Assembly: GCA_020725895.1 (NCBI GenBank)
Contig: DYTO01000001.1
Coordinates: 30,894 to 94,893 of the forward strand
From: Candidatus Hadarchaeum sp.
GTDB taxonomy: Archaea > Hadarchaeota > Hadarchaeia > Hadarchaeales > Hadarchaeaceae
Length of the DNA stretch: 64,000 nucleotides
Direction of reading: 5' to 3'
Shown: positions 1,401 to 23,852 of the stretch, piece by piece
Numbering within the stretch: position 1 is the first letter of the stretch
Layout of the letters: each line of letters opens with the position of its first letter
Program-made: the position numbers and the translations under genes
The notes under the pieces: generated by a model
Told to the model about the DNA's origin: nothing
Databases searched by the model: none
The model's input: only the letters and a program-made list of their open reading frames with translations

Positions 1401-1985
1401 TCACATCGTCGCTTTTGGTCCGGAAAATCTCCTCGGGATATTGATGATTACTTTGTCTTTTTCAACTTCTACCGTTGATTCGCGCGTATCTGCTGAGTCA
1501 GGTAGCGCCACGGTGCAGAAGTAGCCTTTTTTCAATTTCCTTGAAACGGCGTAAATCTCTACCGAGCCCGGATAGAATCTCAGGCGGACGTTTTCTTTGT
1601 TCTCGACACCTTCCGCATCCAAGGAAATCGTCAGTTTACTCACGTCCATCAGAACTTTGTACTCTGGAATCACCTTTTCCTTAACTTCCGCGATTTCGGC
1701 GATTCTCGGTTTTGCTGCGGCCTCTTTTTGTGGTATGGCCCTTTCCTTCTCAAGGGGGACTTTTTCCCAATTTCCGCCCGGCCCGAACCTTTTAACTTCT
1801 ATTTTAGGTGGATTTTTTCCGTTGCTGGTAATCGAAATGCTGAAGCCGCCGCGCTCAACGTGCGCCGGTTTTTTTATTTTGAATTCTGGGATTTTTTTAA
1901 TCTTGAAATCTTTTTCGAATTCCTCCATATCTTTGAAAAATTGTTTCATTATTTTTTTGAAATGTTCGTCGATCGGGTCTGGCAT
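1401..1985 (-). CDS. Hsp20/alpha-crystallin-like small heat-shock protein (tentative)
   Basis: 194 aa. The C-terminal half (VRLRFYPGSVEIYAVSRKLKKGYFCTVALPDSADTRESTVEVEKDKVIINIPRR) fits the alpha-crystallin domain pattern, including the I-x-I tail. The N-terminus is lysine-rich and low-complexity. Confidence 0.4.
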   Translation of the reverse strand: MPDPIDEHFKKIMKQFFKDMEEFEKDFKIKKIPEFKIKKPAHVERGGFSISITSNGKNPPKIEVKRFGPGGNWEKVPLEKERAIPQKEAAAKPRIAEIAEVKEKVIPEYKVLMDVSKLTISLDAEGVENKENVRLRFYPGSVEIYAVSRKLKKGYFCTVALPDSADTRESTVEVEKDKVIINIPRRFSGPKATM

Positions 1986-2218
1986 TCTCTCACGTTTAAA
2001 ACTTCGGTGTTAATGTTGATAAATTTTCTTGAGTAAAAATTTTTTATCTAACAAGGCACAGAAGAGTTTATTTTTTAGATTTTATTTTCATGCTGCGTTT
2101 AAAAAAGAAATGCGCAAGCGATGTTTGCTGTTTTGCCATGTTAATCTAAAAAATAGGATTATAATTGAGTATACATCCGTCGACGGTCCAAATCTTGAAT
2201 TAATAGGAAAACAGACCC

Positions 2219-2227
2219 CTATTTAAA
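2219..2227 (+). promoter_or_regulatory. TATA-box-like element (tatttaaaa) upstream of the candidate ncRNA
   Basis: AT-rich octamer about 25-30 bp upstream of the first GC-rich structured nucleotides; archaeal BRE/TATA spacing. Confidence 0.3.
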
Positions 2228-2249
2228 ATTTTGGGGCATTAGAAAGGCT

Positions 2250-2565
2250 TTTATTACCATGTTTCTAAGTTTAAATTGCACCGGGAAGGTCACACCGGAA
2301 TGGTCTCTAGAGTTGACTGCGGTGGATCCCACTAGTCAGGAGCTTTCGCAGGTACGGCCTATCTGTGATTGTTTCTGCTAGCAGGCTGACATGGTTGACT
2401 CGAAGATCTGTAGTGAACGTGGCGTGGAGTAACCGAAAGGCAAATCCGCACAATCCGTGATGGGTTGGAGCGGCGTGGTTTGAGAGCTCCCGAAAGGGGG
2501 TTTGACCGAGCTACGTCGACCATGGACGCGAAAGAAGAGGGACCTATTTCTCGGTGCATTTTTAA
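2250..2565 (+). ncRNA. candidate structured non-coding RNA, family unassigned (RNase P / SRP RNA considered, not confirmed)
   Basis: About 750 bp between genes contains no credible ORF; the only track ORFs are R/S-rich antisense junk. The region is GC-rich, follows an AT-rich promoter-like stretch and ends in a T-run (2558-2564). The 5' segment GCACCGGGAAGGUC (2278-2291) is complementary to the 3' segment GACCUAUUUCUCGGUGC (2541-2557), giving a closing helix. There are two C-C[GAAA]G-G GNRA hairpins (ACCGAAAGG at about 2431-2439, CUCCCGAAAGGGGG at about 2486-2499) and several local stems. Strand is uncertain. Confidence 0.3.
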
Positions 2566-2593
2566 ACTCTGATGTATATTTTGCTTTGGTGGC

Positions 2594-2704
2594 ATGAACA
2601 AACCTAGAAAAAAGCTTCCGCCGGAAAAACGATTGAGGCTCGTTCGGCAACAGATTTTGGGGCCGCAGGATATCGCAAGACGCCTTCGTAAGAAGAAGAA
2701 ATAA
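2594..2704 (+). CDS. small basic ORF (36 aa) MNKPRKKLPPEKRLRLVRQQILGPQDIARRLRKKKK, speculative
   Basis: ATG 2594 to TAA 2702-2704, below the track's size cutoff. Very basic, resembling a ribosomal-protein or zinc-less basic peptide. No recognised family. Confidence 0.2.
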   Translation: MNKPRKKLPPEKRLRLVRQQILGPQDIARRLRKKKK

Positions 2705-2732
2705 CGCTTCAAGCTCAATTTTTATAACACGT

Positions 2733-3599
2733 TTATAAAACTGTCTTCAATTCTGACTCTGACGTTGTCTGCTGCCACTGCTGTGCGTATTTCAAAAGCC
2801 CGAGCGCGGGCTCCGCGGGAAGGGACCAATGGATTGGTCTGGCAAGTTCGGGCGTTGCGTCAAAAACTTTGAAATCTCCTATGCGCTCCGGATCCACCGG
2901 GACGGAGACGAGGCCAGTTTCCGGGTTCAGGCTCATCGGTGCCAATAATAGACCTCGCCTGACCCGAAGCTCGGAGAGGAGGCAAATGTCTGTCTCAATT
3001 CTTATGATTGTATAATTTCCAGTGGCCTTGGTCTCAGCTTCAGGCATGCGATCGTTCACGTTGCCAACAATGTGTGTCGTAAGCTCACGGTGTAGTCTGT
3101 CGAGGGCTCCGAGGTCGCCCAACCAAACTTCGTACGGGATTGCCTGCAGTGGTATAACCAAATCAAACCCGAGGTTTCCCGAAAACTTAACCCATGGTTT
3201 GACTCCGACTTCATCCAACGCTTCCACCACTAGCTTCGTGACAAATTTTGCCGTTGCCATTCCGCCCCGCTTCGCTCGGATTGTCCAGACCAGATCTGAT
3301 CCAACCGGGTTGTTGAAATCGCCGACGTAATGCCAATAGGAGCAATAAAAGGCCGAGGCATCCGTCCCTGCGATCTGGTCAAGGCCTGAATTCAGGTCTA
3401 TTGGTCTGTGAGAGTCGGACTCGTATCTCTGCACGCTCTTTGATTCCCTGTTGTAGATTGCACACTCTCGAACTGCGCTGCCCACTCTGTTATTCTTGAA
3501 GCTCAAGATCGCTTCCTTCACGTCAAGGCGCTGGTAGTACATGACCTCTCCAAACAATCCAGAGCGCTTGCGCTTTAGCGGGTTCTGGAGAGGGGTCAC
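2733..3599 (-). CDS. hypothetical protein with weak archaeo-eukaryotic primase (LigD-Pol/PrimPol-like) motif spacing, possibly degenerate
   Basis: 288 aa. KFSGNLGFDLVIPL resembles AEP motif II (SGxxGxH-xxxPL) with H replaced by D. VGDFNNP sits about 50 aa upstream where motif I (DxD) belongs. RIETDICLL sits about 50 aa downstream where motif III belongs. Spacing fits the AEP fold but the catalytic residues are substituted. Confidence 0.45.
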   Translation of the reverse strand: MTPLQNPLKRKRSGLFGEVMYYQRLDVKEAILSFKNNRVGSAVRECAIYNRESKSVQRYESDSHRPIDLNSGLDQIAGTDASAFYCSYWHYVGDFNNPVGSDLVWTIRAKRGGMATAKFVTKLVVEALDEVGVKPWVKFSGNLGFDLVIPLQAIPYEVWLGDLGALDRLHRELTTHIVGNVNDRMPEAETKATGNYTIIRIETDICLLSELRVRRGLLLAPMSLNPETGLVSVPVDPERIGDFKVFDATPELARPIHWSLPAEPALGLLKYAQQWQQTTSESELKTVL

Positions 3600-3686: not shown

Positions 3687-4076
3687 GTGAAAGATATGAA
3701 AGAAAATGAGTTCAATTATGGCTGGATTGTTGGATTTATAGAGAGCGAAGGTTTTTTTACGCAAAACACGATAAAAATAACCCGAAAATCCAAAAAGAGG
3801 CTCTTAAAATACAAATATATAAATCCCGCCTTTTTCCTCGTAAGCAAGGACATTTCTGCACTTGAAGCGGCGAAAGGCATTTTGGGAATGGGAAAAATCA
3901 AAGAGCACGGCTCGATTTTCCACCTCGAGATTAGGAGGAAAGACGATCTCCTGCGGCTGGTCAACTTTTTGGATGGGAAATTGAAGTCGAGCGCGCGCAC
4001 CCAACAGTTTGAACGCTGGAAGCAAATGGTTCTGCAGTGGAAATCAAGGAGTTGGGGAGAGGGGTCTTTTATTTAA
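3687..4076 (+). CDS. free-standing LAGLIDADG-family homing endonuclease-like protein (single-motif, homodimer type)
   Basis: 129 aa. NYGWIVGFIESEGFF matches the LAGLIDADG consensus (G-F-I-[DE]-[GS]-[DE]-G-x-F). KGILGMGKIKEHGSIFHLEIRRKDDLLRLVNFLDGKLKS is the typical downstream core. The local sequence (about 3600-4080) is markedly AT-rich against a genome of about 55% GC. Confidence 0.6.
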   Translation: MKDMKENEFNYGWIVGFIESEGFFTQNTIKITRKSKKRLLKYKYINPAFFLVSKDISALEAAKGILGMGKIKEHGSIFHLEIRRKDDLLRLVNFLDGKLKSSARTQQFERWKQMVLQWKSRSWGEGSFI

Positions 4077-4102: not shown

Positions 4103-5098
4103 ATGGAAAAATTCGAAACCGTGATGAGAGGAGTGAGCGAAGCCGTGACGGAGGAGGAGCTGCGCGAGATAATCTCACGCGAAAATTTCTCTGTTTATTG
4201 CGGTTACGAGCCATCCGGAAAAATACACTTCGGCCATATGCTCACAGTCAACAAGCTAATCGATTTCCAAAAGATAGGCGCGCGAACGGTGGTTTTGCTC
4301 GCGAACATGCACGCGTACCTGAATGACAAGGGATCTTTAGAGGAAATAAGAAAAATCGCGGAATACAACAAGAGCTGCTTCATCGCACTCGGTCTAGACC
4401 CCAAAAAGACCGAGTTTTTGCTCGGCTCCGACTTCCAGCTCAAGCCAGATTACACCACAGATGTCATGCGGATGGCCCTGAGGACGACGTTGCTGAGGGC
4501 CAAGCGCTCCATGACTGAAATCGCGAGGCACATGGACGATCCAGACGTTGCGCAGGTCATCTACCCTTTGATGCAGGCGGTCGATATCGCGCATCTCAAG
4601 GCGGACGTGGCGGTAGGCGGCACAGACCAGCGAAAGGTCCACATGATCGCGCGCGAAAACCTACCTCTCCTGGGGTACAGAAAGCCAGTCTGCGTTCACA
4701 CGCCGCTTCTCCACGGGTTGGACGGGTCCGATAAAATGTCTTCCAGCAAGGCTAACTTCATATCAGTCGACGACGCGCCAGAAGTCATCCGAGACAAGCT
4801 GATGAAGGCTTTTTGCCCGCCAAAGCAGACGGACGATAACCCTGTTATAGAATATGCCGAACACATGGTGTTCCCGAAATTCGAGCGGCTAGAGATTGAC
4901 AGGCCGCTGAAGTACGGCGGGCACCTGGACGTCGAAAGCCCGAAAAAGCTGAAGGAAATGTACCGCGCGGGGGAGCTGCACCCGATGGACTTGAAAAAGG
5001 CAGTTTCCGAGGCCGTTGTCAGAGCCCTTGATCCAGTCAGGAAATACTTCGACAAACATCCAAAAACCGCGCGAAGCCTTTTCACGAATCTCTTTTAA
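4103..5098 (+). CDS. tyrS: tyrosyl-tRNA synthetase, archaeal type
   Basis: The track ORF 4037..5098 contains MEKFETVMRGVSEAVTEEELREI ... CGYEPSGKIHFGH (HIGH-class motif) ... KMSSSKANFI (KMSKS-like). I prefer the start at ATG 4103 because the 4037 start overlaps the LAGLIDADG ORF. Length is about 332 aa, typical of archaeal TyrRS. Confidence 0.9.
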   Translation: MEKFETVMRGVSEAVTEEELREIISRENFSVYCGYEPSGKIHFGHMLTVNKLIDFQKIGARTVVLLANMHAYLNDKGSLEEIRKIAEYNKSCFIALGLDPKKTEFLLGSDFQLKPDYTTDVMRMALRTTLLRAKRSMTEIARHMDDPDVAQVIYPLMQAVDIAHLKADVAVGGTDQRKVHMIARENLPLLGYRKPVCVHTPLLHGLDGSDKMSSSKANFISVDDAPEVIRDKLMKAFCPPKQTDDNPVIEYAEHMVFPKFERLEIDRPLKYGGHLDVESPKKLKEMYRAGELHPMDLKKAVSEAVVRALDPVRKYFDKHPKTARSLFTNLF

Positions 5099-5113
5099 AC
5101 TGGAACATTCAGT

Positions 5114-23704: not shown

Positions 23705-23852
23705 GGGGTCGTAGTGTAGCTTGGCAGCACACCGGCCCAGAACCGGGCTGAAGGCAGGCTCCAGTGGATGCTTGTAGGTCTGCTGACGAAAGGATGATGA
23801 CCTATTGGAGCGGTGAGACCTGCAAATCCGGGTTCAAATCCTGGCGACCCCA
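23705..23852 (+). tRNA. tRNA-Trp(CCA) with 53-nt intron between positions 37/38, plus a possible second roughly 20-nt insertion 5' of the anticodon stem
   Basis: Acceptor GGGGTCG (23705-11) pairs CGACCCC (23845-51), discriminator A 23852. D-arm GTGT/ACAC. Anticodon stem GCAGG (23754-58) pairs CCTGC (23819-23). Anticodon loop CT-CCA-G, anticodon 23761-63. T-arm CCGGG-TTCAAAT-CCTGG (23828-44). Intron 23765-23817. An extra CGGCCCAGAACCGGGCTGAA (about 23733-23752) between D-arm and anticodon stem is unexplained. Confidence 0.6.
23765..23817 (+). ncRNA. tRNA-Trp intron with box C/D-like guide RNA motifs
   Basis: Canonical C' box ATGATGA (23794-800) and D' box CTGA (23783-86); degenerate terminal boxes (TGGATGC 5', GTGAG 3'). 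Guide TGTAGGT (23773-79) pairs exon ACCTGCA, placing the N+5 nucleotide opposite tRNA position 39. Guide TTGGAGC (23805-11) pairs exon GCTCCA, with G23808 opposite C34. Confidence 0.45.

Follow-up and report, generated by a model that had tools for sequence, protein, structure and literature searches.

A covarying RNA of about 280 nt in Hadarchaeota, a candidate for a new class of structured archaeal RNA

What is encoded by the GC-rich sequence that lies between two minus-strand genes (1401-1985 and 2733-3599) of Candidatus Hadarchaeum sp.? The gap between these genes, in which an AT-rich part is followed by a GC-rich part, belongs to a 64,000-nt stretch of contig DYTO01000001.1 (assembly GCA_020725895.1, positions 30,894 to 94,893), which is called the window here and is numbered from its first nucleotide. 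The original prediction, made from the letters of the window, had placed in this gap a plus-strand structured non-coding RNA (ncRNA) of about 280 nt, which it took for a divergent signal recognition particle (SRP) or RNase P RNA or else for a different RNA. The structured ncRNA itself is borne out by the contrast in folding z-score between the strands, by a promoter, by covariation and by the lack of codon periodicity, and between the identities left side by side the evidence favours a different RNA. The fold of this RNA is under strong purifying and compensatory selection. With modest confidence, we read RNA 2278-2557 as a new, phylum-restricted and trans-acting structured RNA that would be a ribonucleoprotein (RNP) scaffold or a ribozyme. 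The RNA gene, its structural parts and its neighbours are listed in Table 1.

Table 1. Positions of the RNA gene, its predicted signals and helices, and neighbouring genes in the window (BRE, B recognition element; ORF, open reading frame).
Feature	Position	Strand	Description
RNA gene	2278-2557	+	about 280 nt in the window; 272-296 nt in relatives
Archaeal promoter (putative)	2242-2256	+	BRE GAAAGG 2242-2247, then TATA box TTTTATTA 2249-2256
Oligo-T tract (T5)	2559-2563	+	one base past the closing helix
H1a	2278-2286 with 2549-2557	+	9 bp, 99.7% paired
H1b	2288-2291 with 2541-2544	+	4 bp, 98.2% paired
Asymmetric internal loop	2292-2303	+	ACACCGGAAUGG in the window; family consensus AAACCGGAAG
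H2	2304-2308 with 2536-2540	+	closes the three-way junction; window coordinates read from the sequence
Hairpin A	2310-2401	+	12-bp base stem, 2310-2321 with 2390-2401
Junction strand	2402-2406	+	GAAGA in the window, GAAAG in the family
H3	2407-2409 with 2533-2535	+	3-4 bp; 4/4 pairs change on both sides (helix 8 of the refined structure)
H4	2413-2422 with 2520-2529	+	6/8 pairs change on both sides (helix 9 of the refined structure); leads to the four-way junction
Hairpin B	2424-2449	+	loop GAAA 2435-2438 in the window
Hairpin C	2451-2467	+	6-bp stem, pentaloop GUGAU 2457-2461
Hairpin D	2471-2518	+	long arm, invariant G-U wobbles, variable apical loop (helices 13 and 14 of the refined structure)
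Basic 36-aa ORF	2594-2704	+	MNKPRKKLPPEKRLRLVRQQILGPQDIARRLRKKKK; conserved small protein beside the RNA, not part of it
Primase-polymerase-like gene	2733-3599	-	269/288 aa
LAGLIDADG endonuclease-like gene	3687-4076	+	129 aa, single motif, free-standing, Pfam E = 6.7e-9
194-aa gene	1401-1985	-	no Pfam/NCBIfam match

The gene for a primase-polymerase-like (PrimPol-like) protein served as the marker through which 40 genome loci were fetched, all from Hadarchaeota except one labelled Bathyarchaeota. With the window RNA as nhmmer query, full-length homologues were found in 24 of these loci, all on the strand opposite to the marker gene and 0.2-2.5 kb past its 3' end. Two divergent members, L018 (62 bits) and L020 (20 bits), were added by a profile search. 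The latter comes from Candidatus Hadarchaeum yellowstonense, and only the 3' two-thirds of the RNA are recognisable in it, the 5' third being missing, which suggests decay or remodelling in that lineage. The gene order in most loci is tyrosyl-tRNA synthetase (TyrRS), LAGLIDADG, PrimPol-like, RNA, 194-aa gene and ACT-domain gene, some of these being missing in places. A metagenome collection was scanned with a pattern built on the two most conserved strings of the RNA (TGGATCCCACTG, 35-65 bases, CAGCAGGCTG); it returned 32 contigs, 26 with the full RNA and six with chance matches, two of the latter (L058 and L062) being GC-rich sequence with an apparent start codon just upstream. The phage, plasmid and IMG/VR collections held no true match to the RNA, L074 and L075 being chance matches to the pattern. 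There is one copy of the RNA in the whole window. As far as can be seen from these sequences, the RNA family is confined to the archaeal phylum Hadarchaeota, across which it appears to be vertically inherited.

The evidence for a conserved fold comes from 43 distinct homologues kept after duplicate removal (alignment A3) and from a first alignment of 25 sequences. On the latter, RNAalifold, which the original prediction had recommended for orthologous regions, gave 90 pairs, 49 of them with compensatory change; this structure was then refined by hand and a helix, H2, was added. The refined structure on 43 sequences comprises 95 base pairs in 14 helices and is 94.3% paired. Both sides change in 53 of the 95 pairs, compared with 27.9±3.0 in shuffles (0 of 500 reached 53), and seven-position slid controls gave 16-28 pairs of this kind and 34-47% pairing. 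The plus strand of the window folds at -125 kcal/mol (z = -4.96), a stability that none of 100 shuffled sequences attained, whereas its reverse complement has a z-score of -0.55. Invariant G-U wobbles (e.g. 220/259 and 222/257) also fix the RNA strand, since the opposite strand would have C-A mismatches at these pairs. No coding signal was found across the region: variable alignment columns are spread over the three codon phases as 51/50/40, without three-base periodicity, and the length of 608 of the 688 gap runs cannot be divided by 3. The long antisense ORFs, dismissed from the start as artifacts, have no conserved frame and are a by-product of G+C content.

The overall fold consists of a three-part terminal rod that leads to a three-way junction, the arms of which are hairpin A and a stem to a four-way junction. 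In the rod, GCACCGGGAAGGTC (2278-2291) pairs with GACCTATTTCTCGGTGC (2541-2557), and H1a and H1b are parted by a 3-4-nt bulge. The terminal closing helix had been proposed from the complementarity of the two ends in the window; it is conserved in relatives, and covariation in the 43 homologues supports it as real. The rod pair at columns 14/302, for instance, is A-U in 21 sequences and G-C in 21. The asymmetric loop of the rod (AAACCGGAA) faces about 3 nt; its CCG is invariant in the first alignment, the loop is missing in L018, and no conserved pairing partner was found for it. H2 has 4-6 bp and, in a duplex analysis, the covarying forms GGGC/GCCC, GAGCC/GGCUC, AAGCCU/AGGCUU and GAGUCU/AGGCUU. 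It was missed by RNAalifold because of indels, and misalignment of three rows lowers its column count to 73% paired. The strands of the three-way junction are (C)UCUA, GAAAG and AU. The junction strand at 2402-2406 is among the best-kept single-stranded segments and is present even in L018 and L020.

In the base stem of hairpin A, 8 of the 12 pairs change on both sides, and the internal pairs of the hairpin are 98% kept (helices 4-7). The hairpin also contains an irregular, near-invariant helix in which GGAUCCCAC (2324-2332) lies opposite CAGCAGGCUG (about 2379-2388), with an AU bulge and a CA/CA 2x2 loop; the family pattern is GG(AU)CC(CA)CUG facing CAG(CA)GGCU. The CC:GG and CU:AG steps of hairpin A are near-invariant (pairs 56/125, 57/124, 60/121 and 61/120). 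Next comes a GUA/GAA 3x3 loop in most members, the window not being one of them, and the distal stem varies. GGCC (2356-2359, A3 columns 91-95), a palindrome, stands in the apical loop of 39 of the 43 sequences. It is replaced by AGCU, likewise a palindrome, in L065 and in L039/L069, which stand in apparently separate sub-groups of the alignment.

For H3 and H4, the window pairs in Table 1 were taken from the minimum free energy fold, and the family H4 has 8 bp. Among the hairpins of the four-way junction, hairpin B has a loop that is mostly of GNRA type in the family (GUAA, GCAA or GAAA, mostly GUAA), with the variants GUGA, GAGA, GUCA and GUUA. Hairpin C (helix 12) is 98% paired, with changes on both sides in 4 of 6 pairs, and GUGAA and GUGAU predominate in its loop, next to other A-rich variants. 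Hairpin D contains a small 2/3-nt internal loop only and no conserved A-rich modules. The two hairpins with GAAA loops that had been noticed in the window are indeed present, at 2433-2440 (loop 2435-2438) and about 2487-2500. None of the 14 supported helices crosses another, and a search for pseudoknots brought up spurious G/U-rich matches only, without any compatible run of 3 bp or more between conserved unpaired segments.

Signals for transcription are found on both sides of the RNA. The putative promoter ends 22 nt and begins 36 nt 5' of the RNA, and its TATA part is written CTTTTATTA after GAAAGG. In the first alignment, an element of the form (A)GAAAG-TTTTTAT(G) stands at equal distance in all 25 homologues aligned upstream. 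Counted from the G at which the terminal helix begins, the BRE and T-rich TATA box ((A)GAAAG-TTTTTATG) span about -36 to -24 in 25 of 25 sequences, with the T-rich TATA core at about -30 to -24. Archaeal promoters have their TATA box centred near -27, and the window element fits this geometry. This promoter would place the start of transcription at or next to G2278. It lies about 25 nt from the tatttaaaa (2221-2229) that had been taken for the promoter. At the other end, the T5 tract is likely to be an archaeal termination signal; a T-run had rightly been noticed there, with its span given as 2558-2564. Most homologues of the first alignment have three or more consecutive T close behind the closing helix, a few bases away at most, and the orientation of promoter and T-run is identical in all members. 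From the positions of both signals, the predicted RNA would extend from about 2278 to about 2557-2563.

Is this RNA a known one? A search of Rfam 15 (4227 families) at the gathering score, over the window and 58 related loci (40 genome and 18 metagenome loci), matched no family to the RNA, so that the scan suggested by the original prediction returned nothing. At E<=10, an 800-nt slice of the window (2000-2800) had only chance matches, to mir-725, Lnt and isrK, and the divergent L020 copy (4790-5110) had none. The P4 and helix-8 signatures of RNase P and SRP RNAs had been reported missing, in agreement with both the Rfam covariance models and the covariation-supported structure. When RNase P P4, J3/4 and J2/4 and SRP helix 8 were mapped onto the RNA by hand, only short resemblances were seen (GGAAGGUC to GGAAAGUC, AUAGAG to ACAGAA, and AGCAGG); these were rejected because the segments sit in covariation-supported nested helices. 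Short likenesses of hairpin A to 5S rRNA and to the 3' end of 16S rRNA were put down to chance since there was no Rfam match to 5S or small subunit rRNA. A link of the RNA to the PrimPol-like, LAGLIDADG or TyrRS genes, by analogy with group I introns and maturases, was also discarded: neither spacing nor orientation is constant, and no intron signature is present. Nothing relevant was found in the literature on Hadesarchaea or Hadarchaeota together with RNase P, SRP RNA or ncRNA.

The RNA might nevertheless be a known one in a form beyond the reach of these models. If it were a Hadarchaeota RNase P RNA, strongly remodelled and with its catalytic core rebuilt beyond recognition, the four-way junction would be the P7-P8-P9-P10/12 cruciform. 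Size, terminal helix, own promoter and single syntenic copy would all fit. The sequence of a stem, two short GNRA-type hairpins and a long arm has a topology like that of the S-domain cruciform, and the A-rich GAAAG junction precedes H3 as J3/4 precedes P4. In length, P1-like terminal helix, P7-P10-like cruciform and A-rich junction the RNA thus resembles archaeal RNase P RNAs of types A, M and T. What is missing is the long-range helix P4, the core nucleotides, and P15/L15. All 14 helices are nested, with no conserved complementary unpaired segments from which P4 could form; GGAAAGUCC and ACAGAA-type strings, the P4 consensus, are absent from the RNA. The universally conserved positions of P4, J2/4 and J15/2, which are kept even in the minimal type T (PMC3579882), were not found. 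Moreover, nothing like P15/L15 follows the cruciform, hairpin A lying 5' of it, and hairpin D, in a four-way junction whose topology and GNRA-type loops are like those of the specificity domain, is without the large conserved internal loops of CR-II/CR-III type. No RNase P family (RF00373, RF02357, bacterial and nuclear models) matched at the gathering score or at E<=10, and a copy without its 5' third in H. yellowstonense would be odd for an essential ribozyme. However, the Rfam model has in the past failed to detect an RNase P RNA peculiar to one lineage (PMC3579882), and it is this precedent, type T, together with the cruciform-like topology, that keeps an RNase P identity in consideration as an unlikely one. 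That the RNA is a divergent SRP (7S) RNA is very unlikely in our view. In this case the rod would be helix 1/5, hairpins B and C would be helices 6 and 8, and hairpin A would replace the Alu domain. Archaeal SRP RNA (RF01857) is like the Hadarchaeota RNA in length (about 280-300 nt), paired ends, own promoter with oligo-T terminator, single copy in the manner of a housekeeping gene, and two adjacent hairpins with tetraloops of GNAR/GNRA (G-N-A/R-R) type; hairpin A even holds an AGCAGG string. Ends paired as in archaeal helix 1 (PMC2905702) are present, in H1a. The defining marks of an SRP RNA (PMC2905702) are its helices 3 and 4, which carry UGUNR; a long helix 5 that contains the 5e motif; a GNAR tetraloop on helix 6, which lies next to helix 8; and, on helix 8, a GRRA tetraloop (mostly GGAA) above the SRP54-binding loops. 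By these definitions, the Hadarchaeota RNA has neither a pair of helices 3/4 with UGUNR nor a long helix 5 with 5e: no UGUNR was seen in the aligned sequences, the stems between its ends and the junctions have about 18 and 12 bp, and hairpin A is one continuous covarying hairpin. The loop of hairpin B fits GNAR in most members, which carries little weight because there is no helix 8. No hairpin shows SRP54-binding loops under a GRRA tetraloop; hairpin C, of just 17 nt, is a plain 6-bp stem with a GUGAA loop. The CAG of AGCAGG lies in Watson-Crick pairs, where 61/120 and 62/119 covary, and the large domain is a four-way and not a three-way junction. No SRP family was matched at the gathering score or at E<=10, and none in the 58 related loci.

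The position of the RNA upstream of other genes also brings to mind a cis-acting leader, riboswitch-like or a protein-responsive attenuator, that would control read-through into the small basic ORF (Table 1) or into a radical-SAM gene. In most loci a gene on the same strand starts 14-170 nt past the T-run; at least 12 loci have the small ORF there, and about 37 ORF entries are the radical-SAM gene. A helix followed by a T-run, moreover, has the form of an attenuator. Yet what lies downstream differs between genomes: it is the small ORF, the radical-SAM gene, or an Ogg or PrimPol-like gene in convergent orientation, and at least 10 loci have a convergent neighbour and nothing on the RNA strand. 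In the window the RNA is kept although the radical-SAM and Ogg genes are gone, in L030 it is the RNA that is missing and the small ORF that is kept, and with 280 nt and 14 helices the RNA would far exceed the size of leaders known for genes of this kind. Since the downstream neighbour varies, we regard a leader as quite unlikely. From the free-standing LAGLIDADG gene and the primase-polymerase-like gene nearby, one could also imagine a GC-rich relic that has no function, or an RNA that belongs to a mobile or viral element; this is strongly disfavoured by the single copy at a fixed syntenic site with apparent vertical inheritance, by the strong compensatory changes and by the lack of matches in phage, plasmid and viral collections.

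Taken together, the comparisons lead back to a new RNA of Hadarchaeota, for which the following mode of action may be proposed. The RNA would be transcribed from its own BRE/TATA promoter, end at the oligo-T tract after the closing helix, and act in trans as a compactly folded molecule; trans action is favoured by the variation of the downstream gene. In hairpin A, the invariant CC:GG and CU:AG steps could serve as receptors in which the loops of hairpins B and C dock. Such docking would produce a compact, globular RNA and would explain why the Watson-Crick pairs of hairpin A are frozen. According to Jaeger, Michel and Westhof and to Costa and Michel, a GUAA loop is said to prefer CC:GG and a GUGA loop CU:AG. 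The junction strands, the ACCGG loop and the apical GGCC loop would be conserved surfaces that bind a protein or another RNA, forming a binding or active site. The partner could possibly be a second copy of the RNA, through the self-complementary GGCC loop: that GGCC and AGCU are both self-complementary hints, speculatively, at dimerisation through the apical loop. As a protein partner, the product of the basic 36-41-aa ORF could be considered, again as a speculation. In its role, the RNA would be a housekeeping-type RNP scaffold or ribozyme and not a regulator of neighbouring genes. Whether it is a third Hadarchaeota RNA of 'housekeeping size' beside the SRP and RNase P RNAs, with a role of its own, which may self-associate via GGCC and may have the 36-aa peptide as partner, appears to us evenly balanced.

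Several points weigh against this reading. The comparison spans the window and related loci, and a radically rebuilt SRP or RNase P RNA is a conceivable, less likely identity; type T RNase P RNA was 'not detected' down to 10 bits with the Rfam archaeal model before it had a model of its own, other archaea scoring 53-228 bits with RF00373 (PMC3579882). Fourteen of the 40 loci showed no copy of the RNA within 4 kb of the marker, and a covariance model (R1) of its 3' domain gave no further copies in these 14. Four of them (L004, L012, L029 and L040) are possibly too short on the relevant side, and the remaining ones, which include Hadarchaeum sp., may have the RNA at another site or lack it. The partial copy of H. 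yellowstonense argues mildly against an essential, universal RNA, though a functional copy could be present elsewhere. Expression, ends and abundance of the RNA are predicted from promoter and terminator signals, and the suggested docking and dimerisation draw on invariant nucleotides and two changes from GGCC to AGCU.

As regards the neighbours, the 36-aa ORF pointed out in the original prediction exists, and its homologues (36-41 aa) start 16-39 nt past the RNA on the RNA strand in at least 12 loci. They share the motif ..RLK.I.QRIL.P.DI.KRLRKK..., belong to no Pfam or NCBIfam family and have only 6 database matches; under-annotation of such small ORFs is likely. In one sub-lineage, a GC-rich insert of about 230-250 nt separates the RNA terminator from the small ORF (L004 6725-6975, minus strand; L059 9145-9389, plus strand). 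This insert contains GGGGGAAAGUCGCUUACGCC and GGUAGGCGGGAGC, folds at -88.7 kcal/mol and has no Rfam match at the gathering score; either a further ncRNA or a small insertion element could be represented by it. In most relatives (e.g. L035 and L008), a radical-SAM gene with a weak DUF1848 match lies on the RNA strand and is followed by a convergent gene for an Ogg-HhH 8-oxoguanine glycosylase. Neither is found in the window, where RNA and small ORF directly abut the PrimPol-like gene. The primase-polymerase-like family has about 134 proteins, and nearly all named members are labelled Hadarchaeota. The invariant motifs KYSGxLGFD and RGLLLAPMSLNPETG and a weak, sub-threshold LigD match (21.8 bits, with a cut-off of 27.4) are compatible with an unrecognised primase-polymerase of the archaeo-eukaryotic primase (AEP) type, which this protein may be.

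The LAGLIDADG gene lies in an AT-rich pocket just upstream of the TyrRS ORF, which it overlaps, and has the same position in many relatives at 43-66% identity, which points to a protein that has been domesticated rather than to a homing element still active. On the other side of the RNA, the divergent 194-aa gene adjoins it in many but not all relatives (26-54% identity), and the 'Hsp20-like' label once given to its product finds no support from Pfam or NCBIfam profiles. Elsewhere in the window, a tRNA at 23705-23852 (plus strand; 35.6 bits with Rfam) has an insert of about 83 nt at the anticodon loop and is not reported by ARAGORN. The insert is presumably an archaeal intron.

Among known RNAs, there are also likenesses with the large structured bacterial RNAs OLE, GOLLD, ROOL and raiA, whose functions are unknown or have begun to emerge recently. 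These also have a long, multi-junction, covarying fold with invariant internal loops, restriction to a clade and independent transcription, and a function that cannot be deduced from gene context. Some of them have been reported to self-associate; that the Hadarchaeota RNA does so through its GGCC loop would be a guess. It differs from them in being archaeal and smaller (about 280 nt), and has no sequence or model similarity to them though these families are in Rfam. In the manner of its discovery, as a GC-rich island in an AT-rich archaeal intergenic region, it is like the Hgc RNAs, which Klein, Misulovin and Eddy reportedly described in 2002 as GC-rich ncRNA genes in AT-rich hyperthermophile genomes. 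Hgc families are in Rfam and are shorter, and several proved to be H/ACA guide RNAs. The Hadarchaeota RNA, unlike these, has no Rfam match, and no ACA box or pseudouridylation pocket was seen in it.

To our knowledge, very few large multi-junction archaeal RNAs are known beyond rRNA, RNase P RNA and SRP RNA, and RNAs of such size and conservation have historically proved to be ribozymes or the cores of essential particles. If the RNA turned out to be a rebuilt RNase P or SRP RNA without the universal core, this would be at least as surprising as a new class. If it is a new class, it would point to an unrecognised RNA-based function in an uncultured phylum of the subsurface and hot springs and would offer a clonable 280-nt target for biochemistry and cryo-electron microscopy. 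The alignment provides an annotation model for a gene that is now invisible in the metagenome-assembled genomes of Hadarchaeota.

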